Assembly: GCA_937903605.1 (NCBI GenBank)
Contig: CALCZC010000025.1
Span: 67,275-131,274 of the forward strand
Direction: 5' to 3'
Length of the DNA stretch: 64,000 bases
DNA from: an uncultured bacterium
GTDB lineage: Bacteria; Patescibacteriota; Patescibacteriia; Magasanikbacterales; GWA2-37-8
Shown one piece after another: positions 26,090-47,157 of the stretch. The notes beneath the pieces are model-generated. The model was not told the DNA's origin and ran no database searches. It saw only the letters and a list, made by a program, of their open reading frames with translations. Numbering within the stretch: the stretch's first letter is position 1; each line of letters begins with the position of its first letter. A program made the position numbers and the translations under genes.

Positions 26090-26405
26090 AGCGGGATTCT
26101 GCAGTTGATTACAAGTGATACTGCTATCACCTGTAATTCAACTATACATTAATTTTACGATTTTGTCAATGTTATCCACAACGGAAAAAGTACCTAAGAT
26201 TGTTGTAATACTAAATAAACAAAAAACCCAATCGGTTAGATTAGGCGCTTTGTTGAAGTAGCGTCTTAAAAAGTGGTTATCTGCGGCTTAAGTCCCGAGT
26301 TCCTCGGGGGAACACCACAGCGCTCTCTAAGCTATTATTGCATACTTCAAGATTAATATACCACAAAACCCCTTTTTCGCCAATATCAGCTTATCCACAG
26401 GTTTT

Positions 26406-27986: not shown

Positions 27987-28076
27987 TTTGTCATTCCTGT
28001 GGGCCAAAGGCCTCCCTTTGGGAAAGGCAGAGATCTAGGCACTTGTCATCCCCGCGCAGGCGGGGATCCAATGACT
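27987..28076. repeat. two adjacent family-1 units
   Basis: ttgtcattcctgtgggccaaaggcctccctttgggaaaggcagagatctagg + cttGTCATccccgcgcaggcggggatccaATGAC. Confidence 0.7.
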
Positions 28077-28175
28077 AATTTTTCGCAATTTTTCGTATTT
28101 TTATAATTCAAAAATTGGTATTGTAAAAAAGGGGGAAAGAGAGTAAAATATAGACAACTTATTTAATAAAAATTT

Positions 28176-29105
28176 ATGAAAAGTTATTATCGTATAATGC
28201 TTGGCAAGGGTAGTGTTTATGCCAAAGAAGCAAGGTTAGAAAATTTTATGGGCGCCGGATGGCTTGGTGATATTGATTTAACAAATGAATTACCAGAAAG
28301 TCGAGTTGAATTCAATAAGAAATTCATACCTGTTTATTTAAAAAAACATCCTGATGCAAAGAAAATGTCAGCGGCCCTTGCTTGTGGTATGTTATACACG
28401 ATCGCAAAAGGTATTGTTATTGGTGATATTGTTTTATGTCCGGATGGGTCAGGTAATTATTATTTCGGAGAAGTCATTGGTGATTATCAATATGTGTCGG
28501 GAGTAAACTTACCGCACCGTCGTGCTGTGAAATGGTATTCCAAAATTATTCCCAGAGAAGAAATGAGTCAAGCTTTAAAATATTCCACTGGCGCCATTGG
28601 TACAGTTAGCAATATAACCGATCATGCTTCTGAATTAGAAAAATTGATATCAGGTAATGTTGAAAGTCCGATTGTTGTGACCGACGAGTCAATTGAAGAC
28701 CCAAGTGTATTTATGTTAGAGAAACATCTAGAGGATTTTTTGGTACAAAATTGGAACAATACTGAATTGGGTAAGAATTATAATATTTATGAAGAAGATG
28801 GTGAAATAGTGGGGCAACAATATCCTAGCGATACTGGTCCAATAGATATTTTGGCAATTAGTAAAGATAAAAAAACACTTTTGGTAGTTGAGTTAAAAAA
28901 AGGACGCGCAAGTGATGTGGTGGTCGGCCAAATTCAAAGGTACATGGGTTATGTAAAAGACGAATTAGCAGAAAAAAATCAAGAAATTAAAGGGGTTATA
29001 ATTGCTTTTGAAGATGATATTAAAATTCGCCGTGCTTTATCGGTTGCAAATAACATCGATTTTTATACTTATAAAATTGATTTTAAACTTGAAAAAAATA
29101 AATAA
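28176..29105 (+). CDS. YhcG/DUF1016-like PD-(D/E)xK nuclease-domain protein
   Basis: C-terminal …GPIDILAISKDKKTLLVVELKKGRASDVVVGQIQRYMGY… is a D…ExK motif resembling YhcG. It is the first gene of a tightly spaced 15-gene array. Confidence 0.5.
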   Translation: MKSYYRIMLGKGSVYAKEARLENFMGAGWLGDIDLTNELPESRVEFNKKFIPVYLKKHPDAKKMSAALACGMLYTIAKGIVIGDIVLCPDGSGNYYFGEVIGDYQYVSGVNLPHRRAVKWYSKIIPREEMSQALKYSTGAIGTVSNITDHASELEKLISGNVESPIVVTDESIEDPSVFMLEKHLEDFLVQNWNNTELGKNYNIYEEDGEIVGQQYPSDTGPIDILAISKDKKTLLVVELKKGRASDVVVGQIQRYMGYVKDELAEKNQEIKGVIIAFEDDIKIRRALSVANNIDFYTYKIDFKLEKNK

Positions 29106-29107
29106 TT

Positions 29108-30682
29108 ATGACTAATTTTAATACTTCAAAAGAACAAGAACGTGCCGAGCTTCATCGTGCTATTTGGCAAATTGCTAATGATCTAAGGGGAAGTGTAGAT
29201 GGTTGGGATTTCAAACAATATGTTTTGGGAATTTTGTTTTATAGATTTATTGGTGAAAATCTTTCTAATTATATCAATAAACAACAGAGAAAAGTTAAAG
29301 GGTTTGAAAATTTTGAATATTCAAATTTGAGCGATAAAGAAGCAGAATTGGGTAAAAAAGAAATTGTGTTGGCAAAGGGTTTCTATATTCTTCCAAGTGA
29401 GCTTTTTGTAAATGTTCGTAAAAATGCTAAAAACAATGCAAATTTAAACGAAACTCTTTCAAGAGTTTTTAGTAATATTGAAAATTCTGCAAAAGGTTTT
29501 GATAGTGAGGATGATATAAAAGGGTTATTTGCTGACCTTGATGTCAATTCTCCAAAACTTGGAAATACAGTTGAAAAACGTAATCAAAAATTAGTAAAAC
29601 TTTTAGATGCTATTGGAGATCTTCAATTAGGAAATTACTCTGATAATACTATCGATGCTTTCGGTGATGCTTATGAGTTTTTAATGACCATGTATGCTTC
29701 AAATGCTGGTAAATCTGGAGGTGAATTTTATACACCACAAGAAGTTAGTGAATTACTTGCAAAAATTACGACTGTGGGTAAAAAAGAGGTAAACAAAGTT
29801 TATGATCCATGTTGTGGTTCAGGATCGCTTCTTTTGAAATTTGCCAAAGTTCTTGGTAAAGAAAATGTCCGGCTTGGTTTTTTTGGTCAAGAAATAAATC
29901 TTACCACCTATAATTTGTGTCGTATCAACATGTTTTTACACGATATCAACTATAATCATTTTGATATTGAGCTCGGTGACACACTAACTGATCCCAAACA
30001 TTGGGATGACGAACCTTTTGATGCTATAGTTTCTAACCCGCCTTATTCAATTAATTGGGAAGGGGACGCTAATCCGCTTTTAATAAACGACCCTCGTTTT
30101 TCGCCTGCTGGAGTACTTGCTCCAAAGAGTAAAGCTGATTTGGCTTTCACCATGCACATGCTTTCGTGGCTTTCTACCAGCGGAACGGCGGCGATTGTTG
30201 AATTCCCTGGAGTTCTTTATCGTGGTGGAGCTGAAGCAAAAATCCGCAAATATTTGATTGATAACAATTACGTTGATGCTGTAATACAACTTCCACTAGA
30301 TCTTTTCTTTGGTACAACCATTGCTACTTGTGTTATCGTTTTAAAGAAGAGTAAAAAAGACAATAAGACTTTATTTATCGATGCTTCCGCTGAATTTGTT
30401 CGGGGTGGTAATAAAAATAAATTAAACGAAGAAAATCGTAAAAAGATCCTGAATGCTTTTATAGAAAGAAAAGATATAGAACATTTTGCAAAAATTATAG
30501 ATAACAAAGCTATTGCAGAAAATGATTACAATCTAGCAGTTTCTAGTTATGTGGAGCAAAAAGACACTAGAGAAGCAGTGGACATAAAAGAACTTAATAA
30601 AGAAATTGAGAGAATCGTAAAAAGACAAAGTGAATTAAGGTTGGCAATTGATGAGATTGTGAGGGAGATTGAGGGTAATTAA
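29108..30682 (+). CDS. hsdM: Type I restriction-modification system, DNA methyltransferase subunit M
   Basis: N6-adenine MTase motif IV NPPYS, an AdoMet-binding region (DPCCGSGSLL), and an HsdM N-terminal domain. Confidence 0.9.
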   Translation: MTNFNTSKEQERAELHRAIWQIANDLRGSVDGWDFKQYVLGILFYRFIGENLSNYINKQQRKVKGFENFEYSNLSDKEAELGKKEIVLAKGFYILPSELFVNVRKNAKNNANLNETLSRVFSNIENSAKGFDSEDDIKGLFADLDVNSPKLGNTVEKRNQKLVKLLDAIGDLQLGNYSDNTIDAFGDAYEFLMTMYASNAGKSGGEFYTPQEVSELLAKITTVGKKEVNKVYDPCCGSGSLLLKFAKVLGKENVRLGFFGQEINLTTYNLCRINMFLHDINYNHFDIELGDTLTDPKHWDDEPFDAIVSNPPYSINWEGDANPLLINDPRFSPAGVLAPKSKADLAFTMHMLSWLSTSGTAAIVEFPGVLYRGGAEAKIRKYLIDNNYVDAVIQLPLDLFFGTTIATCVIVLKKSKKDNKTLFIDASAEFVRGGNKNKLNEENRKKILNAFIERKDIEHFAKIIDNKAIAENDYNLAVSSYVEQKDTREAVDIKELNKEIERIVKRQSELRLAIDEIVREIEGN

Positions 30683-30688
30683 ATTAAT

Positions 30689-32890
30689 ATGAATAAATTA
30701 AAAGTTAAATTAGAAAATTGTTACGGAATAAAAAAGCTTGAACACGAGTTTGATTTTTCTAATTTTAAAACTTTTGTTATCTATGCACCCAACGGCGTAA
30801 TGAAGACATCATTTGCAAAAACCCTTAGCGATATTGCAAAAGGAGAAAAACCCTGTGATCAAATAGATGATACTTTAACACCAATTTTTAATTTTTTAAT
30901 TGATGATTCTGAAAATCAAATCCAATCAGAAGAAATATGTGTTATAGAGTCATACAACAAAAAAGCGTTTGATTCTGAAGATAAGATTCTTACGCTTCTA
31001 GCAGACGACGAGACCAAAAAGGAATATTTGGCAATATTTAACGAAATTGAATCACTTAAAAAAGCTTCTCTTCCTGGATTAAAAAAAATATCAGGCAGTA
31101 GTAACTACGAATCTGAAATTACAGAAGCATTTTCTAATCTTGATAAGAAAAATATTTTTGAAATTTTTGAGGCCGTTTTAAATGACATTGAAGCATCGAA
31201 AGATTCATTTGAATTTAAATATAACGATGTTTTTGATAAAGGTGGAAAAGTTAAAAAATTTCTGGCAGATAATTTTGCATTATTAAAAGAGTACATTGAA
31301 AAATACAATGATCTGATTAGTAAGTCTACTTTTTTTGCAAAAAATGCCAACCATATTTTTGGAACAACGGAAGCAAAAATTCTTGGTAAGTCGCTTGAGG
31401 GCGATGAATATTTTACTGCTGGGCATAAATTAGTATTAAAATCACATGGGGATGTATCTGCTAAAAATAAATTATCAGAAATAATTGATGAGGAAATTGA
31501 AAAAGTTTTTAATGATAAAGACCTGAAAGATATTTTTGAAAAAATCGATAATTTGCTCAATACTAATAAAGAACTTCAAGCATTTAAGAAGATTATTGAA
31601 AGAGACAATTCAATTTTATTGAGATTAAATAATTACGATGCTTTTAGAAGAGAGGTGTGGTTTAGTTTTTTAAAACAAATTGAGACAAGCATAAAATCAT
31701 TAGTTGAATTATATAATCAGAAAAAGGTTGATTTAGAAAGGATTATACAAAAAGCAAAGGACAGTCAGTCACAATGGGAAAGTGCTATTAAAGAATTTGA
31801 AAACAGATTTGTTAATAATCCATTTACTCTTGAAATTCAAAATAAGGCGGACGCTGTATTAAACGAAAAGACACCAGTAATTGATTTTAAATTTCAAGGA
31901 AAAGATATCGAAAGAAACAATTTGATAGAAAATGTATTGAGCCAAGGAGAGAGACGAGCTTTTTATATTTTAAATGTTATTTTTGAGATTAAATCTCGGC
32001 AGCTACAAAACAAAAAAACATTATTTATTATTGATGACATAGCGGACTCGTTTGATTACAAAAATAAATATGCAATTATTGAATATTTAAATGATTTATC
32101 CAAAGAAGATAATTTCTATTCAATAATTTTAACGCACAACTTTGACTTTTTTAGGACACTTCAATCAAGAATCTTGCAAGATAATAAGTGGAACTATTCT
32201 TTTATAGCAGAAAAACTAACAGATGAAATTAAACTAATTAAAGCAGGTAGTAAAAATGTTACTGACCCATTTACTAACTGGAAAGCAGGTCTTAATAACA
32301 ACAAAAAACATTTAATTGCTTGTATTCCTTTTGTGCGAAATTTGATTGAATTTAAAGATGGACGAAATGATGGATATAAGCTTCTAACGCACACTCTTCA
32401 TAGAAAATCTTTGGACGAAACTATTAAAGCAACCCCAGATATTTCAATTGCTGATCTACAAGCACCGTTTTCGAGTGTTGTGTCTGGTGTTGCATTTACA
32501 TTTACAGACACAAATGAAAAAATTATTGATGTAATTGAGGAACAGATAGCAGTGATAAAAAATGACAGAAATACCGATTCAATTGTTCTAGAAGATAAAA
32601 TTATTTTTGCTATTGGAATAAGATTGAAAGCAGAAGAATATATGTGGTCGAAGGTTACAAACCAAGATCTAATAAACGGATCGCAAACAGGTAAGCTGTT
32701 TCAGCGATACAAAGATCAATTTAAACAAGATCCGACTCATGTTGAAGCTATAAAAATCTTAGAAAGCGTAAATATAATGACTCCTGAGAACATACACCTG
32801 AACTCTTTTATGTATGAACCAATTTTAGATATAGGCATAGATGAGTTAAAGAGTTTACACGATAAGGTTTGCAATTTAATGAATAATTAG
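30689..32890 (+). CDS. ABC-type (Rad50/SMC-like) ATPase with ~400-aa helical insertion and C-terminal R-x3-E…H module; RloC-like anticodon-nuclease candidate
   Basis: Degenerate Walker A APNGVMKTS. ABC signature LSQGERRAF, Walker B LFIIDDIADSFD and H-loop ILTHNFDFF about 400 aa downstream. C-terminal GIRLKAEEY…(39 aa)…H. Lies between hsdM and hsdS. Confidence 0.5.
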   Translation: MNKLKVKLENCYGIKKLEHEFDFSNFKTFVIYAPNGVMKTSFAKTLSDIAKGEKPCDQIDDTLTPIFNFLIDDSENQIQSEEICVIESYNKKAFDSEDKILTLLADDETKKEYLAIFNEIESLKKASLPGLKKISGSSNYESEITEAFSNLDKKNIFEIFEAVLNDIEASKDSFEFKYNDVFDKGGKVKKFLADNFALLKEYIEKYNDLISKSTFFAKNANHIFGTTEAKILGKSLEGDEYFTAGHKLVLKSHGDVSAKNKLSEIIDEEIEKVFNDKDLKDIFEKIDNLLNTNKELQAFKKIIERDNSILLRLNNYDAFRREVWFSFLKQIETSIKSLVELYNQKKVDLERIIQKAKDSQSQWESAIKEFENRFVNNPFTLEIQNKADAVLNEKTPVIDFKFQGKDIERNNLIENVLSQGERRAFYILNVIFEIKSRQLQNKKTLFIIDDIADSFDYKNKYAIIEYLNDLSKEDNFYSIILTHNFDFFRTLQSRILQDNKWNYSFIAEKLTDEIKLIKAGSKNVTDPFTNWKAGLNNNKKHLIACIPFVRNLIEFKDGRNDGYKLLTHTLHRKSLDETIKATPDISIADLQAPFSSVVSGVAFTFTDTNEKIIDVIEEQIAVIKNDRNTDSIVLEDKIIFAIGIRLKAEEYMWSKVTNQDLINGSQTGKLFQRYKDQFKQDPTHVEAIKILESVNIMTPENIHLNSFMYEPILDIGIDELKSLHDKVCNLMNN

Positions 32891-32891
32891 T

Positions 32892-34010
32892 ATGAAAAAA
32901 CACCAATCAAAAATTGAAAAACTAATTTCAGAACTATGCCCTAATGGTGTGGAGTTTAAAATGCTTGGAGAACTAGAAGATGATAATTTGATTAAACTTG
33001 GACGTGGAAATGTAATTTCAAAAACTGATATTACAAACACACCTGGTGATTATCCGGTTTATTCTTCATCTGCAAATGATGAGGGCGAATTTGGCAGGTA
33101 TGGAAAATATATGTTTGATGATGAAAGAATTACGTGGTCAATCGATGGGGGCGGTAGATTTTTTTATAGACAGTCACATAAATATTCTGTAACAAATGTA
33201 TCGGGGTGGTTAAAAGTAAATGATAATAATGTATTAAATTTACGTTATTTGTATTTTGTTCTGTCAAATGCTTGGTTAACAAAAGTTTTTGATTATACAA
33301 AAAAAGCTCATCCTTCAGTAATTAGAGAAGAGTACAAAATCCCTATTCCACCTCTTGCAATTCAAGAAGAAATTGTAAAAATTCTTAATAGTTTTACGGA
33401 GCTGGAAGCGGAGCTGGAAGCGGAGCTGGAAGTAAGAAAGAAACAGTATGATTATTACCATAAAGAACTTTTTGATTTAAGGGATGATTTCGAATTAAAA
33501 ACACTTGGGGATATTTACGAATTTCAATATGGAGAAGGAAATACTATTCCTACTTCAGGGGATAAATTTCCAGTATATGGAAGTAATGGTATTGTTGGTT
33601 CTCATGAAAAATTCAACAGTGAAGATGCTCCGGTGATTGGACATATTGGAGCTTACGCAGGAATAGTAAATTGGGCTCAAGGAAAACACTTTGTTACATA
33701 CAACGGAGTTATTTGTAAAATCAAGCCAGGAGTTAATCCAAGGTTTGGTTATCATCTGTTGATTCTCCAAGATTTTAGATCAAAAGCAAACGCAGGGTCT
33801 CAACCTTTTGTTTCTTACGACATGCTTAGAAAAACCGAAGTAAAAATACCTCCTATTTTAATACAAAATAAAATTGCAGATGTCCTTGATAAATTTGATG
33901 CACTTGTAAACGATATTTCAGTTGGTTTGCCTGCCGAGCTCAAAGCACGTAGGTCACAATACGAATATTATAGAAATAAACTTCTTGATTTTAAAGAGTT
34001 AGAAAAATAA
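32892..34010 (+). CDS. hsdS: Type I restriction-modification system, specificity subunit S
   Basis: Two target-recognition domains. Central and C-terminal conserved helices (…LAIQEEIVKILNSFTELEAEL… and …LPAELKARRSQYEYYRNKLLDF). Confidence 0.85.
   Translation: MKKHQSKIEKLISELCPNGVEFKMLGELEDDNLIKLGRGNVISKTDITNTPGDYPVYSSSANDEGEFGRYGKYMFDDERITWSIDGGGRFFYRQSHKYSVTNVSGWLKVNDNNVLNLRYLYFVLSNAWLTKVFDYTKKAHPSVIREEYKIPIPPLAIQEEIVKILNSFTELEAELEAELEVRKKQYDYYHKELFDLRDDFELKTLGDIYEFQYGEGNTIPTSGDKFPVYGSNGIVGSHEKFNSEDAPVIGHIGAYAGIVNWAQGKHFVTYNGVICKIKPGVNPRFGYHLLILQDFRSKANAGSQPFVSYDMLRKTEVKIPPILIQNKIADVLDKFDALVNDISVGLPAELKARRSQYEYYRNKLLDFKELEK
33398..33433 (+). repeat. 3× 12-bp in-frame tandem repeat (GGAGCTGGAAGC; EAEL units) in the central conserved region of hsdS
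   Basis: ggagctggaagcggagctggaagcggagctggaagt. Confidence 0.85.
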
Positions 34011-34011
34011 T

Positions 34012-35166
34012 ATGGTTGAATTCGACTCAATCTCTGAATTGTTTGTTAATATAAAAAATGATTTATTATCAGATATTGATAAAAAGAGTATTGCTTTACT
34101 TTATGCTTTTAATTCTACTGGTAAGACAAGGCTTTCTATTGAGTTTGATGAATTAAACGAAAATGATAATGGTTATATTAAAGTACTATCTTATAATGCT
34201 TTTTTAGAAGACCTGTTTGTCTGGGATAATAAGAACCTTGTCTTAAATTTTAGTCCGGATGATTGGCGGATAAGATTTATTCAGGATCAAGGTTTAGAAA
34301 ATAAAATTGTAGAGAATTTTAAATTATTTACTAATTCAAAAGTTGAGCCTATCTTTGAAATTGAAACACATAGAGCAGAGCTCGATAAATTTATATTAGA
34401 CAAATCTAAACTAGGTGGAAATAAGATAGGAAAAATTTCTTTTTTTATTGCTTCAGGAGATGGAAAAAATAAAGATAGCATAAAAATTTCTAAAAGTGAA
34501 GAAAGTATACTGATATGGTCTGTTTTTTATTCTATTTTAGAGATTGTTATAGAAGAATTAAATACACCAGAAGAACATCGTTCAACTAATCTTTTTAATC
34601 ACCTTGAATATATTGTAATAGATGATCCTGTTTCTTCGATCGATGATGAAAGAATTATTTCTTTAGCAGTAAAATTATGTAGGACTATAAAGTTAAATGA
34701 AAATAGAAAAATAAACTTTTTAATAACCACACATCACGCTTTATTTTTTAATGTTTTATTTAATTCTTTCAAAAAATTTCAAAAATCTGATGTAAAAAAA
34801 TATTGTTATATTTTATCAAAAAATGGTAATATTTTTATATTAGAAAGCCAGAAAGATGATTCACCGTTTGCATATCATATTTTAGTTAAAAATAAGCTTA
34901 AAGAAGCAATAAAAAATGGAAGTCTTGAAAAATACCATTTTAATTTATTTAGAACTTTATTAGAAAAAACGGCAAATTTTTTAGGATATACTGATTGGGG
35001 TGAGTGTATTTATAAAGAAGAAAACAGAGAAGAAGTTAAAAGACTTATTAATTTATATAGTCATAGCAAATTATCAGAATTGGAAAGTGGAAGTTTAAGT
35101 AATGCTGATAAAGAGTTGTTTGCAAATACTTTTAATTCTTTTATGGAAGATTTTAAATATAAATAA
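34012..35166 (+). CDS. PrrC-like anticodon nuclease candidate (ABC-type ATPase N-domain + C-terminal R-x3-E…H module)
   Basis: Walker A FNSTGKTRL, Walker B YIVIDDPVSSIDD, H-loop LITTHHALFF. C-terminal FRTLLEK…(37 aa)…YSHSK. Sits between hsdS and hsdR, as in the prr locus. 384 aa (PrrC is about 396). Confidence 0.55.
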   Translation: MVEFDSISELFVNIKNDLLSDIDKKSIALLYAFNSTGKTRLSIEFDELNENDNGYIKVLSYNAFLEDLFVWDNKNLVLNFSPDDWRIRFIQDQGLENKIVENFKLFTNSKVEPIFEIETHRAELDKFILDKSKLGGNKIGKISFFIASGDGKNKDSIKISKSEESILIWSVFYSILEIVIEELNTPEEHRSTNLFNHLEYIVIDDPVSSIDDERIISLAVKLCRTIKLNENRKINFLITTHHALFFNVLFNSFKKFQKSDVKKYCYILSKNGNIFILESQKDDSPFAYHILVKNKLKEAIKNGSLEKYHFNLFRTLLEKTANFLGYTDWGECIYKEENREEVKRLINLYSHSKLSELESGSLSNADKELFANTFNSFMEDFKYK

Positions 35167-35169
35167 ATT

Positions 35170-38100
35170 ATGTCTAAAAATAATAATTACAATTTAGTTG
35201 CAGAAAATACACAAAGCACGGTTGTCGCCGAGTATGTTTCTGGTACAAAAAGATTATCACAATATCAAAGTGAAGATGCTTTAGAAAAAGCTTTTATTAA
35301 ACAATTAGAATCTCAGGCGTATGAATATATTGCGATTAAATCCGAAAATGATTTGATTCTTAATCTTCGCAAACAACTTGAAAAGTTAAATAGTTATACT
35401 TTTTCTGATGCAGAATGGGATAGATTTTTTACGAGCGAAATAGCAAATCCAAATCAGAGTATTGAAGAAAAAACTGCAACTATACAAGAAAATGAAGTAA
35501 AAAATTTATATGGTGATGATGGAAAATTTAAAAGAAATATAACTCTTTTAGATAAGAAAAATATTCACAACAACAGTCTGCAAGTCATCAATCAGTACGT
35601 CACCGAAGACGGACAAAGATCGAATCGTTATGATGTGACGGTATTGGTAAATGGATTACCGCTTATACACATTGAATTAAAACGTCGTGGAGTTGCTATT
35701 CAAGAAGCATTTAACCAAATAAACAGATATCAAAGAGAGAGTTTTTGGGCTTCAAGTGGTCTTTTTGAATATGTGCAATTGTTTGTAATATCTAATGGAA
35801 CACATACAAAATATTACAGCAATACAACAAGATCACAACACGTCAAAGAATCTCAAGAGGGTTCTAAAAATAAAGGAAAGAAGACCAGTAATAGTTTTGA
35901 ATTTACAAGTTGGTGGGCTGATGCAACAAATAGACCAATCACTGATTTGATGGACTTTGCAAAAACATTTTTTGCAAAGCATGCGATTTTGAATATTCTG
36001 ACGAAGTATTGCGTATTTACGACCGATCGCCTTTTGCTTGTTATGCGACCGTATCAAATCGTAGCAACAGAAAGAATTTTAAATCGCATTGAAGTTAGTA
36101 CAAATTATAAAAAACTTGGCACCACCGAAGCGGGTGGCTATATTTGGCACACCACAGGGTCAGGAAAGACTCTGACGAGTTTTAAAACTGCTCAATTGGC
36201 AAGTAAATTGTCATATGTAGATAAAGTATTGTTTGTGGTAGATCGTAAGGATTTGGACTATCAAACAATGAAAGAATATGACAAGTTTGAAAAAGGTGCG
36301 GCGAACAGCAATACGAGCACTGCGGTTTTAAAGAAACAACTGGAGGATTCAAATTCTAGAATTATTATCACAACAATTCAAAAACTTGATAGATTTATTG
36401 CCAAAAATTCTAGTCACACTATTTTTGATGGTCATATCGTAATTATTTTTGACGAGTGTCATCGTTCGCAATTTGGTGAAATGCATTCGAGTATTATAAA
36501 ATCATTTAATAATTATCACTTATTTGGATTTACTGGAACACCAATATTTTCTAAGAATGCTTCAGCTGGTGGCAGACCTGATTTCAAGACCACAGAGCAG
36601 GCTTTTGGTGAAAAATTACACACTTATACAATAGTTGATGCTATTTCTGATAAGAATGTTTTACCGTTTAAAGTTGATTATGTTTCAACTGTTAAAGAAG
36701 CAGAAAATATTGAAGACGCTCAAGTAAAAGATATTGACCGTGAAGCGGTATTATCCGCTCCAGAACGATTAGAAAATATTGTTCGCTATATTCGTGAACA
36801 TTTTGATCAGAAAACTAAAAGAAATAGTTTTTATAAAATTCAAGATAGAAGATTAGCGGGGTTTAATTCTGTTTTTGCAGTTTCTTCTATTGAGGTAGCA
36901 AAGAAATATTATCTTGAATTTAAAAGACAGTTGGCAGATGAACCGAGTGATAAAAAATTAAAAGTCGCCACAATATTTAGTTTTGGAGTAAATGACGAGG
37001 ATATAGACGGAATGATTGATGAAAATTCTGAAGATACAAGTGGTTTAGACGTAAGTTCAAGAGAGTTTCTTGAAAGTGCTATCAAAGATTATAATAAAAT
37101 GTTTGGAACGTCTTATGACACTTCATCTGAAAAATTTCAAAATTACTATAAAGATGTTAGTGAAAAAGTAAAAAAACGAGAAATAGACATCTTAATTGTG
37201 GTTAATATGTTTTTAACTGGTTTTGATGCTACTACTTTAAATACTTTGTGGGTAGATAAGAATTTGAGATTGCATGGATTACTTCAGGCATATTCAAGAA
37301 CTAACCGTATATTAAATAGTATTAAAACTTTTGGAAATATTGTTTGTTTTAGAAACCTAGAAAAAGCTACTAATGAAGCGATTGCTTTATTTGGAGATAA
37401 AGAAGCCGGTGGAATCGTATTACTTAAAGCATATGAGGATTACTACAATGGGTATAAAGAAGGTAATAAAGAAGTTCGAGGATACAAAAGTTTTGTTAAT
37501 GAACTACTTGCAAAGTTTCCAATCGGAGAAAGAATTATTGGAGAACAAAATCAAAAAGATTTTATAAAATTATACGGAGCAATTTTGAGAGTCAAAAATA
37601 TTTTAGCTACTTTCGATGAATTTAATGGTAATGAAATATTATCTGATAGAGATGTGCAAGATTATCATAGTATGTATATTGATTTATACAATGAATTCCG
37701 CAAAGCCGATGATTCTGAGAAAGAAAACATTAATGACGATATTGTTTTTGAAATGGAACTTATCAAACAAGTTGAAATTAACATTGATTATGTTCTTGGT
37801 CTTATAAAAATATATCATGAGGATCATGTAAAAAATAAAGAACTTTTGATAGATATTAATAAAGCAATTGATTCGAGTGTGGAATTGCGTAATAAAAAAG
37901 ATTTGATCAATCAGTTTATTACTTCCCTTGATGTTCATTCTATCATTGATGAAGATTGGCAAAAGTTTGTGGAAGAGAAAAAAGTCCAAGAATTAGAACA
38001 AATTATTGAAACTGAAAATCTTGATCATGAAGCTACATATAAATTTATAAAAAACTCTTTTAGAGATGGTAATATACCGATTACAGGAACCGCTATAAGT

Positions 38101-38226
38101 GATATTTTGCCACCAGTATCAATGTTTTCCCCAAACGGAGAAAGAACTAAAAAAAGAGAAGGTGTTTTGGATAAATTAACAAGATATTTTGAGAGGTTTT
38201 TTGATATTAGTAAAAGAGATTTATAG
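35170..38226 (+). CDS. hsdR: Type I restriction enzyme, R subunit (helicase/endonuclease)
   Basis: N-terminal PD-(D/E)xK (…LIHIELKRRG). SF2 motifs TTGSGKT (I), FDECHRSQ (II) and further helicase motifs. 1018 aa. Confidence 0.9.
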   Translation: MSKNNNYNLVAENTQSTVVAEYVSGTKRLSQYQSEDALEKAFIKQLESQAYEYIAIKSENDLILNLRKQLEKLNSYTFSDAEWDRFFTSEIANPNQSIEEKTATIQENEVKNLYGDDGKFKRNITLLDKKNIHNNSLQVINQYVTEDGQRSNRYDVTVLVNGLPLIHIELKRRGVAIQEAFNQINRYQRESFWASSGLFEYVQLFVISNGTHTKYYSNTTRSQHVKESQEGSKNKGKKTSNSFEFTSWWADATNRPITDLMDFAKTFFAKHAILNILTKYCVFTTDRLLLVMRPYQIVATERILNRIEVSTNYKKLGTTEAGGYIWHTTGSGKTLTSFKTAQLASKLSYVDKVLFVVDRKDLDYQTMKEYDKFEKGAANSNTSTAVLKKQLEDSNSRIIITTIQKLDRFIAKNSSHTIFDGHIVIIFDECHRSQFGEMHSSIIKSFNNYHLFGFTGTPIFSKNASAGGRPDFKTTEQAFGEKLHTYTIVDAISDKNVLPFKVDYVSTVKEAENIEDAQVKDIDREAVLSAPERLENIVRYIREHFDQKTKRNSFYKIQDRRLAGFNSVFAVSSIEVAKKYYLEFKRQLADEPSDKKLKVATIFSFGVNDEDIDGMIDENSEDTSGLDVSSREFLESAIKDYNKMFGTSYDTSSEKFQNYYKDVSEKVKKREIDILIVVNMFLTGFDATTLNTLWVDKNLRLHGLLQAYSRTNRILNSIKTFGNIVCFRNLEKATNEAIALFGDKEAGGIVLLKAYEDYYNGYKEGNKEVRGYKSFVNELLAKFPIGERIIGEQNQKDFIKLYGAILRVKNILATFDEFNGNEILSDRDVQDYHSMYIDLYNEFRKADDSEKENINDDIVFEMELIKQVEINIDYVLGLIKIYHEDHVKNKELLIDINKAIDSSVELRNKKDLINQFITSLDVHSIIDEDWQKFVEEKKVQELEQIIETENLDHEATYKFIKNSFRDGNIPITGTAISDILPPVSMFSPNGERTKKREGVLDKLTRYFERFFDISKRDL

Positions 38227-38232
38227 GTTTGT

Positions 38233-38946
38233 ATGAATATTTTAGGAATACACACTGAATTTATTGTTAATTCAACTCTATTAATAGGAGCTGTGGCTTA
38301 TCTATCACACTTTTTTGGTAAAGTCATAACCGACTGCAAACCAATAGTTGATGATCGTAAATGGGATGCCGAACTTTCCGGAGTTTATTATATTGGAATG
38401 TATGTTTTTTTGCCACTTACACTTTTATTAATCATTCCGCAATCCATATTGATGAATTTTCTTGATTCAATTGGTTTAAATAGTTTTGTTGCTGTTTTAT
38501 TACAGTTTATCCTTTGCTCTTATCTTTCTGTGTTTCAAGTAATTAAGTCACGGTTTTTTTACAGTGTGCCAACAGGACAAATAAAGTGGGTTGAAAAACG
38601 AATTGTAGAATATATAAAAAAGAAACGAAATTTTAAATTAAGTATTATTTTGGTGTTACTTGCACAAATACAATTATATTATTCTAGCAATGTTAGATTA
38701 TTTATTCTTGGTTTAATATTTTGTTTGATCTTTTATTTTTTACGTGCTGCCATATTTTCTTATGATAAAAATGTAAAACTAAATAAATTTAATATTTATT
38801 TTATAGATACAACGATTGCACCTTTACTTAATTATGATTTGGTTAAAATTAACGATGATCATATTAAGTTAAAAAAAGACGGTAAATTTATGATTATAAA
38901 TAAAAATACTATTTTACGTCTTGAGTGTTTAGAAAAAGAAAAATAA
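38233..38946 (+). CDS. hypothetical membrane protein
   Basis: 237 aa with about five TM helices. Very AT-rich. Confidence 0.4.
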   Translation: MNILGIHTEFIVNSTLLIGAVAYLSHFFGKVITDCKPIVDDRKWDAELSGVYYIGMYVFLPLTLLLIIPQSILMNFLDSIGLNSFVAVLLQFILCSYLSVFQVIKSRFFYSVPTGQIKWVEKRIVEYIKKKRNFKLSIILVLLAQIQLYYSSNVRLFILGLIFCLIFYFLRAAIFSYDKNVKLNKFNIYFIDTTIAPLLNYDLVKINDDHIKLKKDGKFMIINKNTILRLECLEKEK

Positions 38947-38953
38947 TAAAAAT

Positions 38954-39592
38954 ATGAATTTAAATGATTATACCAAAAGATTTGAAAAATGTTATCAAAT
39001 TTTTTCCGAAACTTTTTTAAGTTTTTTTGTTTGGAAGGGATTACAAGATAAAGATTTTGAAAAGACATATTCAGAAAATAATTATTTTTGGTCCGCCATT
39101 CTTCGTTCGCTTGAAAATGATTGGCTTACTAATCTTGCAAAAATATATGAAGAATCAAGATATAGTAAAGAAAATGAAGTAATTTCTGTGTATGCTCTTG
39201 TATCATACCAGGCTGACCTTGATCGAGCAGTCAAAGTCAGACAGATTTTAGAAGTAAATGCAGATATTATTAAAAATATTCAAATTTTACGTCATAATCA
39301 GTTGGCGCACAATAATGCTGAGCATTTACTAAAGCCGGAGACGTTGTTAGAGAAATTTCCGATTGAATATAATAAAGTAGAACAACTTGTGTTGTTAACA
39401 GATGAAGTTTTATCAAATTTACATCCTGAAACGGGTCACGGATATATTTATAAAATGCTTTCTGAAGATGCTGTCAACGACAGTAAAAATATTATAAAAA
39501 AATTACAATATTATTCAAAACTTCACCATAATCATTCAGAAAAATTTAGGTGTGGAGAAGTAAATGATTGGAAATTTCCACCAGATTTATAA
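38954..39592 (+). CDS. HEPN-like (R-x4-6-H) Abi-type hypothetical protein
   Basis: …ILRHNQLAHNNAEH… fits the HEPN Rx4-6H motif. Immediately downstream of hsdR. Confidence 0.4.
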   Translation: MNLNDYTKRFEKCYQIFSETFLSFFVWKGLQDKDFEKTYSENNYFWSAILRSLENDWLTNLAKIYEESRYSKENEVISVYALVSYQADLDRAVKVRQILEVNADIIKNIQILRHNQLAHNNAEHLLKPETLLEKFPIEYNKVEQLVLLTDEVLSNLHPETGHGYIYKMLSEDAVNDSKNIIKKLQYYSKLHHNHSEKFRCGEVNDWKFPPDL

Positions 39593-39603
39593 TTTAAATA
39601 AAT

Positions 39604-40179
39604 ATGCAAACACCGATTTTAATAAAAGAACATGTGAGTATAACTCAATTTATTAATTTTTGGTCAAGTTATTATATTTATGCAAAAATTGAAAATTATT
39701 ATATAAAAAATATAAATAAAAAAGTATTTGATAGTGAAACGTTAAACGCTTTATTTATGTGGAAGAATGGATCTGTGTTAAGTAAAAAAAAGAAAGATTC
39801 TCTGAATAAAAATATTATAAGAAAAATTGAAATAATAAATTCTCTTAAAAATAAATTTGATTTCGATCTGTTTAAAAAGGAATTTAAAAATGTGTCTGTA
39901 ATATGGAAAATTTTTCTTCTAAACTTAATTAAACCGAAAACATACCCCATATTTGATCAACATGTTTTTAGAGCGATGAAATTTATTAAATTTTCTAAAA
40001 TTGAAGAAGTTCCAAATAATGACAGAGAAAAAGAAGAAGTATATTTTGATGAATACATAGATTTTTTTAATAAAATTAAAGCTGAATTACCAAGAGATTT
40101 TGATAATAAAAAAATTGATGAAGCACTTTGGTCTTTTGGAAAATTTCTTAAGAGTAATTACAAAACAATTTTATGTTAG
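39604..40179 (+). CDS. hypothetical protein
   Basis: 191-aa Lys-rich ORF. No motif recognised. Confidence 0.35.
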   Translation: MQTPILIKEHVSITQFINFWSSYYIYAKIENYYIKNINKKVFDSETLNALFMWKNGSVLSKKKKDSLNKNIIRKIEIINSLKNKFDFDLFKKEFKNVSVIWKIFLLNLIKPKTYPIFDQHVFRAMKFIKFSKIEEVPNNDREKEEVYFDEYIDFFNKIKAELPRDFDNKKIDEALWSFGKFLKSNYKTILC

Positions 40180-45261: not shown

Positions 45262-47157
45262 GTGAGTGATAATTTTTGGGACAATTTAGAAGAGGCAGAA
45301 AAAGAACCGGAGTTTTACGCACCTCCGGATGTTAATTATTTCGCCATGACCAATTTCCGCAATCAAATGCGTAAATTTGGTATCAAGACCGATGACCGTC
45401 GCCGACACATGTATGTTATCGGTAAGACCGGTATGGGTAAGACCACGGTGCTTGAAAATATGGTGCTCAACGATATCTATGCCGGGCATGGAGTTGGTTT
45501 GGTTGATCCGCATGGAGATTTTGCCGAAAAAATCATCAACTATATTCCGCCCCGTCGCATCAATGATGTGGTATATTTTAATCCGGCTGATATGGATTTT
45601 CCGGTCGGTTTTAATATTTTTGAAACCGTTCGTCCGGAACACAAACATCTGGTGGCTAGCGGTTTGATGGGTGTTTTCAAAAAGATTTGGGTAGATATGT
45701 GGAGTTCTCGCATGGAATATATTCTCAATAATACTATTTTGGCGTTGCTCGAATATCCGGGTACGACACTACTTGGTATCAATCGCATGTTGGCTGATGA
45801 CGAATATCGTAATCGTATCGTTGCCAATCTCAAAGATCCGGTAGTAAAAGCTTTTTGGCAAAGTGAATTTGCCGGTTATAACGACAGATACAAACAAGAA
45901 GCGGTCGCGCCTATCCAAAACAAGATCGGTCAGTTTTTGTCCGCTTCGGTTATCCGCAACATCGTGGCACAAGTAAAAAGCAAGATAAACATCCGCGAAA
46001 TCATGGATCAAAAAAAGATTTTTATCATGAATTTATCCAAAGGTAGAATCGGGGAGGATAATTCTCGACTCTTGGGAGGTATGCTCATCACCAAAATCCA
46101 ACTCTCTGCCATGGAACGTGTAGATATGGCGGAAAAAGATCGTAAAGATTTCTTTTTATACGTGGATGAGTTTCAAAATTTTGCGACTGAAAGTTTTTCC
46201 AATATTTTGTCCGAAGCGCGTAAATATCGCTTGGATTTGACCATGGCGCATCAATATATGGATCAGCTTGATGAACACGTACGCGCCGCGGTAATAGGTA
46301 ACGTCGGCAGTATCGTTACTTATCGTGTAGGTTCGACAGATGCGGAAATATTGGGCAAAGAGTTTGCGCCGATTTTCACGGAAGAAGATCTGATCAACTT
46401 ACCAAAATACAACGTTTACCTCAAATTGATGATTGACGGCGTGGCCTCACGTCCTTTTAGTGCCATCACCTTGCCGCCTATTGGCAAACCTACCGGTAGT
46501 TTGGAAAAAGTGGTACGCGTATCTCGTGAACGTTACGCGACACCGCGCGATCAGATAGAAGATAAGATTATGCGTTGGAGCGGAATGGAAGAAAATATTG
46601 ATGAAAACAGAGAATTGGATGAAGATGAAATAGAGTTTAATAAAGCCGCGCCTTTGGTAAAAACTCCCGATACCGGCGGAAAAAAAGAATTTAAGAAAAA
46701 CGATTTTCGCGGTGACAAAAAAAGTAAACCAAATTTTAATAAAAAAGATAAAAAAAGTTTTGATTTTGCCTCTTTGCGACCAGATCCGGTTTTTGTTCCG
46801 CCACCAACGGTTAAGATTCCGCGTAAAGAAATTGTTCCGCCAAAGCCGGTAATAAAAACCGAGCCCAAAATCATAGAACAGAAAACAACTACGCTTTCAT
46901 TGTCTTCTTTGCAAAATAGGACAGATGTCAAACCACCGGAAAAATTGGCGCAAAAAATAGCCCCGGAACCGATTGAAAAAGAAATTGTTGAAGAACCACC
47001 GCAAAGTATCAATTTCAGCGATTTAAAGCGTTCCCACAAAGCAGAACCGCCAAAAAAAGTGGAAAATAAACCGAATTTGCCGAAAACCGAAAAGCCGCGA
47101 GAAAATCAAGGTAATCCGAAACCGCTAAAGCCAAATGATGTGGTAACTTTTGATTAA
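45262..47157 (+). CDS. VirD4/TraG/TraD-like (type IV secretion coupling-protein-like) AAA ATPase with Pro/Lys-rich C-terminal tail
   Basis: Walker A VIGKTGMGKTT, Walker B FFLYVDEFQNF, and TraG-D_C-like RKYRLDLTMAHQYMDQL. C-terminal about 200 aa are low-complexity (PPKPV…). Confidence 0.6.
   Translation: MSDNFWDNLEEAEKEPEFYAPPDVNYFAMTNFRNQMRKFGIKTDDRRRHMYVIGKTGMGKTTVLENMVLNDIYAGHGVGLVDPHGDFAEKIINYIPPRRINDVVYFNPADMDFPVGFNIFETVRPEHKHLVASGLMGVFKKIWVDMWSSRMEYILNNTILALLEYPGTTLLGINRMLADDEYRNRIVANLKDPVVKAFWQSEFAGYNDRYKQEAVAPIQNKIGQFLSASVIRNIVAQVKSKINIREIMDQKKIFIMNLSKGRIGEDNSRLLGGMLITKIQLSAMERVDMAEKDRKDFFLYVDEFQNFATESFSNILSEARKYRLDLTMAHQYMDQLDEHVRAAVIGNVGSIVTYRVGSTDAEILGKEFAPIFTEEDLINLPKYNVYLKLMIDGVASRPFSAITLPPIGKPTGSLEKVVRVSRERYATPRDQIEDKIMRWSGMEENIDENRELDEDEIEFNKAAPLVKTPDTGGKKEFKKNDFRGDKKSKPNFNKKDKKSFDFASLRPDPVFVPPPTVKIPRKEIVPPKPVIKTEPKIIEQKTTTLSLSSLQNRTDVKPPEKLAQKIAPEPIEKEIVEEPPQSINFSDLKRSHKAEPPKKVENKPNLPKTEKPRENQGNPKPLKPNDVVTFD

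Follow-up and report, generated by a model that had tools for sequence, protein, structure and literature searches.

The array of three perfect 12-bp units that lies within an hsdS gene of an uncultured Patescibacteria bacterium is, in our judgement, very probably the spacer-length module of a type IC HsdS, and by analogy with the EcoR124 family the number of units would set the length of the gap in the bipartite DNA target. That type IC systems have a repeat in helix D1 which affects the length of the gap has been known since 1989, and the array described here is a further member of that class. It is a feature that varies on an evolutionary timescale and not a demonstrated phase-variation locus. 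The genes and features that bear on this are listed below with their coordinates in the window, by which we mean the whole 64-kb stretch of DNA that was analysed.

28176-29105, + strand: 309-aa protein with a PD-(D/E)XK, NucS_C/YhcG-like C-terminal nuclease domain (PADLOC PDC-S02, 3e-153)
29108-30682, + strand: hsdM, 524 aa, intact (Pfam N6_Mtase, 2.6e-115, and HsdM_N)
30689-32890, + strand: 733-aa ATPase between hsdM and hsdS (PADLOC PDC-S46 end to end, 6.7e-231)
32892-34010, + strand: hsdS, 372 aa, intact (two Pfam Methylase_S domains; PADLOC Specificity_I, 6e-87; Foldseek TM 0.75 to 7bst_A)
within hsdS (32892-34010), + strand: target-recognition domain TRD1, about aa 20-150, and TRD2, about aa 200-320
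33354-33470, + strand: central conserved helix D1, aa 155-193, the first coiled-coil spacer helix, which holds the array (AF2 helix; ungapped EcoR124I alignment)
33397-33432, + strand: three copies of CGGAGCTGGAAG, encoding (T)ELE-AELE-AELE(V) (tandem-repeat detection, simulation and unit scan)
33855-33983, + strand: C-terminal helix D2, aa 322-364 (AF2 model)
34012-35166, + strand: PrrC homologue, 384 aa, between hsdS and hsdR (PADLOC PrrC, 2.6e-100; Pfam AAA_13 in the C-terminal part)
35170-38226, + strand: hsdR, 1018 aa, intact, type IC (Pfam HSDR_N, SWI2_SNF2, T1R_D3-like and EcoR124_C, the last at 1.9e-65)

The array is a perfect period-12 repeat of CGGAGCTGGAAG (3.0 copies, 36 nt, window positions 33397-33432 on the + strand), and its Tandem Repeats Finder score of 72 was the top score of the 64-kb window. 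When the window was simulated with a first-order Markov model (n = 200), the longest perfect period-12 span had a mean of 20.7 nt and never exceeded 24 nt; the 36-nt span of the real window is far beyond chance. The unit GAGCTGGAAGCG was not found elsewhere in the window outside the array, even when one mismatch was allowed. An earlier, sequence-only reading of this DNA had placed a three-copy 12-bp repeat at 33398-33433. The repeat is real, but its register was one base off: the perfect array starts at 33397, and the register proposed there, GGAGCTGGAAGC, matches at 35 of 36 positions, the final base being T and not C. The description of the repeat as EAEL units fits two full units, with the third only partial.

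It can be seen that the array is read in frame within the open reading frame at 32892-34010, the codons being ACG GAG CTG GAA GCG GAG CTG GAA GCG GAG CTG GAA GTA. Together with its edges it is translated as T-ELEA-ELEA-ELE-V (HsdS aa 169-181), which in the EcoR124 register becomes TEL-EAEL-EAEL-EV. The array has a G+C content of 62% compared with about 34% for the surrounding hsdS gene, and the codons that make up the unit are rare in the open reading frames of the window (CTG accounts for 6% of Leu codons, GAG for 15% of Glu and GCG for 21% of Ala). All three units are built from identical codons.

The position of the array within HsdS was assessed with an AlphaFold2 model (49 homologues, mean pLDDT 89.5) and by comparison with known structures. 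In the model, aa 169-181 fall mid-way along a single long helix spanning residues 155-193, with pLDDT values of about 88-91, a second long helix spans residues 322-364, and two beta-rich domains are placed one before and one between these helices. Pfam, the AF2 model and Foldseek all confirm the HsdS architecture of two TRDs with a central helix between them and a C-terminal helix after. The Foldseek matches of the model were themselves HsdS structures (1ydx, 1yf2 and 7bst_A), the best being 7bst_A, from the EcoR124I–Ocr complex, with a TM score of 0.75. A phmmer search against PDB sequences aligned the protein with the EcoR124 HsdS of 7bst_A (E 2.5e-27) over both conserved regions, and the alignment was ungapped across the array region (query stretches FTELEAELEAELEVRKKQYDYY, FTELEAELEAELEVRKKQY and ILNSFTELEAELEAELEVRKKQYDYY).

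Since aa 169-181 lie inside the helix formed by residues 155-193, the array is in D1 and outside any target-recognition domain. In the alignment it occupies the columns of the EcoR124I TAEL repeat, and the window HsdS has an in-frame 12-bp, four-residue unit at the TAEL position of D1. The earlier placing of the array in the central conserved region rather than in a TRD is therefore upheld by the AF2 helix, Pfam, the ungapped EcoR124I alignment and Foldseek, and its equation with the position of the TAEL repeat by the column-for-column phmmer alignment. The assignment of the gene as a type IC hsdS also stands, given the two Methylase_S domains, the match to EcoR124 HsdS and the structural match to the EcoR124I subunit.

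The remainder of the operon agrees with this assignment. The EcoR124_C domain of HsdR (1.9e-65), taken together with the gene order hsdS–prrC–hsdR, identifies the system as a member of the type IC family whose layout resembles that of EcoprrI, and the conserved regions of HsdS are likewise EcoR124I-like. Like EcoprrI (prrA-prrB-prrC-prrD), the locus has hsdM upstream of an hsdS–prrC–hsdR series, encodes a strong PrrC homologue and carries a D1 repeat in HsdS. It differs from EcoprrI in two additional genes, the 733-aa PDC-S46 gene that separates hsdM from hsdS and the PDC-S02 nuclease-like gene upstream; D1 is also in a 12-aa state here, whereas EcoprrI has three TAEL units, a 16-aa state and an N7 gap (PMC3874165). 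We note that this is an EcoprrI-like operon, combining a type IC system with an anticodon nuclease, in a Patescibacteria genome. PDC-S46 is a PADLOC candidate defence family; the 733-aa ATPase has weak SMC_N/RecF similarity and is separated by gaps of 1-6 nt from its neighbours in the hsd operon. The gene for the 309-aa PDC-S02 protein stops 3 nt short of hsdM. Neither a second hsdS nor long inverted repeats were found within 28000-40000, and an inverting (shufflon) hsdS locus was rejected on these grounds and because the unit occurs only in the array.

The TAEL repeat of EcoR124I and EcoR124II was described by Price et al. (1989; reviewed in PMC3874165). According to this review (Loenen et al., PMC3874165), the 12-bp unit is present twice in EcoR124I, which recognises GAA N6 RTCG, and three times in EcoR124II, which recognises GAA N7 RTCG, with EcoDXXI and EcoprrI also having three TAEL units; the change in TAEL number in D1 arises through unequal crossing-over, and in experiments with EcoR124I/II and with EcoR124I-EcoDXXI hybrids the gap followed the repeat number. 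The window array resembles that of EcoR124I in consisting of an in-frame 12-bp unit encoding four residues (xAEL / ELxA) in the same D1 columns, bounded by the invariant F-T and R-K-K-Q-Y anchors. It differs in the unit peptide, which is EAEL/ELEA here and TAEL there, and in having three DNA-perfect units where EcoR124I has two perfect units and a degenerate one. The two systems also differ in their setting: EcoR124I belongs to an enterobacterial plasmid, whereas the hsd locus here appears to be chromosomal and comes from an uncultured member of the Patescibacteria. The AlaRS of this host shares 99% identity with a protein that takes its name from a Candidatus Magasanikbacteria MAG, and the host was assigned on that basis.

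The distance between the F-T and RKKQY anchors is 12 aa in the window HsdS and also 12 aa in the EcoR124I chain of 7bst, in which two TAEL units follow a degenerate first unit, 'AL', compared with FT-EL-EAEL-EAEL-EV in the window protein. Because these distances are equal, the three DNA copies found here correspond to the length of the two-TAEL EcoR124I and not to that of the three-TAEL EcoR124II. The parallel drawn previously with two versus three copies in EcoR124 was thus correct as to the module, but the three copies here match EcoR124I (N6) rather than EcoR124II. The methyl-adenine interval of EcoR124I is 7, and from the shared 12-aa state we infer that the window HsdS has an EcoR124I-like interval, provided that the geometry of the TRDs is conserved; by the same analogy, one further unit would give an interval like that of EcoR124II, EcoDXXI and EcoprrI.

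According to the mechanism that we propose, each 12-bp unit contributes four residues, or about one helical turn, to helix D1, which together with its antiparallel partner helix keeps the target-recognition domains apart. Slipped-strand mispairing or unequal crossing-over would presumably add or remove one unit while keeping the reading frame, D1 would become longer or shorter by 4 aa, and the two TRDs would be moved and turned relative to each other by roughly one base-pair step. For each unit gained or lost, the non-specific gap in the bipartite target would then change by 1 bp, as it does in the EcoR124 family. As a 12-bp unit is divisible by three, the frame is kept, and a frameshift-type SSR switch of the NgoAV kind was rejected.

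To what extent unit number varies can be seen among relatives of the gene. The anchor-to-anchor length could be parsed for 112 of the best 120 protein matches, and was 12 aa in 98 of these, 8 aa in seven, 16 aa in six and 4 aa in one. A further 80 loci came from genomes of GTDB species representatives (Patescibacteria, Bacteroidota, Bacillota, Proteobacteria, Elusimicrobia and one archaeon), the closest having 60% identity; the 46 unique hsdS genes among them that could be parsed were divided equally between 12 aa (23 genes) and 16 aa (23 genes). The genes and operons in which these four lengths (4, 8, 12 and 16 aa) are found are intact. The most informative pair is P0054 and P0074, whose proteins are identical except for one four-residue SAEL indel and whose hsdM–hsdS–hsdR DNA (6,550 and 6,538 nt) differs solely by one 12-bp unit, with zero substitutions. 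P0028 and P0049, which are 93% identical, have 12 and 16 aa, respectively, and P0045 and P0112 (91% identical) have 12 and 8 aa. Unit number therefore differs between near-identical genes in relatives, although such a difference was not observed for the window allele. The heterogeneity that the sequence-only reading had looked to in related strains is present, including in an isogenic pair one unit apart, and neither of the findings that it had named as counting against a switch, an invariant copy number everywhere or an array located inside a TRD, was obtained.

The units of a given gene also resemble one another at the DNA level. Pairs of units encoding the same tetrapeptide were on average 0.27 nt apart within genes (80% identical) but 2.2 nt apart between genes (7% identical), and none of 5000 permutations gave a difference as extreme as that observed. 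Within a gene the units are mostly identical at synonymous sites, while the codons differ from gene to gene (for example, GAG CTA GAA GCA ×3, GAA CTC GAA GCT ×4 and GAG CTT GAG GCA ×3). This identity amounts to concerted evolution, although homogenisation and a codon bias specific to each genome are not completely distinguished by the test. In the window gene, the use of the same rare codons in every unit speaks against an origin in codon bias and indicates recent copying. Taken together, the length states and the homogeneity of the units are as expected if units had been gained and lost repeatedly throughout the family.

A potential explanation that would not need to invoke any role in specificity is that the repeat is simply a structural feature of the coiled coil, ELEA being heptad-like and selected at the level of the protein, so that changes in copy number would be deleterious or neutral. 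Coiled coils are typically repetitive and rich in E, L and A, and the 12-aa state of 98 of the 112 closest protein matches could reflect purifying selection on a single length. Selection on the protein, however, leaves the identity of rare codons at synonymous sites unexplained, and lengths of 4, 8, 12 and 16 aa occur in intact genes and operons, including the isogenic pair. Moreover, in EcoR124I/II and the EcoR124I-EcoDXXI hybrids the gap changed with the repeat number (PMC3874165). We regard a purely structural repeat as very improbable.

The opposite possibility, that the array is an active phase-variable switch within the population, with a mixture of 2-, 3- and 4-unit alleles and differing methylation specificities, is somewhat less remote but still unlikely. 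It would have precedent in Mycoplasma pneumoniae, where such arrays change between passages (PMC4537597), although the window array is short at three copies whereas the varying M. pneumoniae arrays range from 1 to 33, many being far longer. Exact look-ups placed the window HsdS on six contigs, HsdM on nine and PrrC on eight, all of them identical to the window wherever they overlapped. Each of the six contigs spanning the array has three copies, as must be the case by definition for an exact-protein match, and no near-identical 2- or 4-copy protein was found among 8000 scored candidates from a database of 5.8 billion sequences. The next-best protein match (P0002, 70% identical) has a swapped TRD1 and also three copies. 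Searches of JGI metagenome contigs gave 0 matches both with a pattern of the two flanks separated by a variable gap and with one that joined the end of the array to its right flank.

A hint of a switch is that two independent Logan assemblies terminate inside the third copy: L091 (SRR3330204), which matches the window at 100% identity along 5.5 kb, ends at 33428, and L092 (SRR3330212), at 100% identity along 4.8 kb, ends at 33425. In a k=31 de Bruijn simulation a pure 3-copy allele was assembled unbroken, and a mixture of 3 and 4 copies gave breaks at 33426/33432. The simulated breaks are near the observed contig ends but do not coincide with them, and for this reason we do not count the ends as evidence of heterogeneity. 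The same low-coverage samples are also fragmented elsewhere (L088, L089 and L093), and heterogeneity just downstream of the array, such as a TRD2 variant or a SNP variant in the conserved region (CCR), would produce identical breaks. For the L091 and L092 samples the two likeliest right-hand partial products starting in the array were looked up, and none was on record. The contig ends could thus reflect heterogeneity in repeat number or downstream of it, or low coverage. The slipped-strand specificity switch proposed from the sequence alone is therefore supported in so far as unit number varies among relatives, as in P0054/P0074, but not for the window allele itself, which has three copies in six of six contigs and no 2- or 4-copy variant in our searches. 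We conclude that the array, as found in this lineage, behaves like an allele of the spacer-length module that is evolvable but fixed at present, and not like a demonstrated fast switch.

A more speculative extension is that the array slips in natural Candidatus Magasanikbacteria populations or, more broadly, that GAGCTG-type units are a mutational hotspot selected across the family. Perfect, rare-codon, G+C-rich units of the GAGCTG type occur from Patescibacteria to Proteobacteria and Archaea. We hold this proposal to be unlikely. If slippage did take place, type IC specificities would be mixed within a single population of a CPR bacterium and would be coupled there to a PrrC anticodon nuclease, and if the units were a hotspot, the repetition would not be a passive feature of the coiled coil.

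Comparable repeats are found in other hsdS genes. In M. pneumoniae, 12-bp repeats encoding AELS or TELS in D1 of HsdS vary between strains and passages (PMC4537597; PMC8836594). As in the window gene, these are four-residue units in the first dimerisation helix, and their copy number is strain-variable; however, the M. pneumoniae arrays have 1-33 copies and vary on passage, whereas three copies and no variation were observed in the lineage studied here. NgoAV and other SSR-containing hsdS genes (PMC7383803) share with the window gene a repeat between the two TRDs whose change in length alters specificity instead of turning off expression. The NgoAV-type repeats differ in being homopolymeric or non-triplet, such that a change shifts the frame and truncates HsdS to a single-TRD protein that acts as a homodimer (PMC7383803), whereas with the multiple-of-three unit found here HsdS remains full-length and only the length of the helix would change. 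The survey of repeat-containing type I genes by Atack et al. excluded units that are multiples of 3 (PMC7383803), and arrays like the one in the window were consequently not counted there. The class of D1 repeats is missed when a survey of phase-variable type I systems leaves such units out. For annotation, the length of the helix predicts an EcoR124I-like methyl-adenine interval and each unit gained or lost is predicted to alter the gap by 1 bp, while the family comparison gives quantitative support for recurrent turnover of units across very distant phyla.

Several further observations were made in the course of this work. The locus L082 (569-1669), which encodes P0002, is from a related strain and differs in TRD1 (52% nucleotide identity) and in the DNA upstream, while from the central conserved region through TRD2 there are only 5 differences in 672 nt, with the same 3-copy array. 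The difference between L082 and the window is a case of TRD swapping, the junction lying within the conserved regions. In L094 (56-715), P0029 is a half-size, single-TRD HsdS of 219 aa that shares 83% identity with the TRD2 half of the window HsdS; it is followed by PrrC-sized and HsdR-like genes, and it may be a natural homodimeric S subunit.

Directly after hsdR, at 38233-39592 on the + strand, there is a 237-aa hydrophobic open reading frame with no family match and then a gene for a 212-aa AbiU2-type HEPN protein (4.2e-12), and together with the PrrC, PDC-S46 and PDC-S02 genes described above these look like a defence island. Upstream of the defence genes, at a distance of about 2 kb, is a match to the Rfam DUF3800-V RNA (26254-26349, - strand), which scores 72.9 bits against a gathering score of 37.4. 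A 631-aa protein encoded at 45262-47157 (+ strand) has weak similarity, at about 1e-10, to VirD4/TraD coupling proteins, and its gene may be a remnant of a mobile element near the defence island. Finally, the hsdS units of loci L002-L081 share a G+C-rich GAGCT(N) core across distant phyla, even in genes of 30-40% G+C (example G+C fractions are 0.5-0.75 for the units and 0.3-0.4 for the surrounding gene), and this core could result from horizontal spread of the conserved region or from selection on the DNA.
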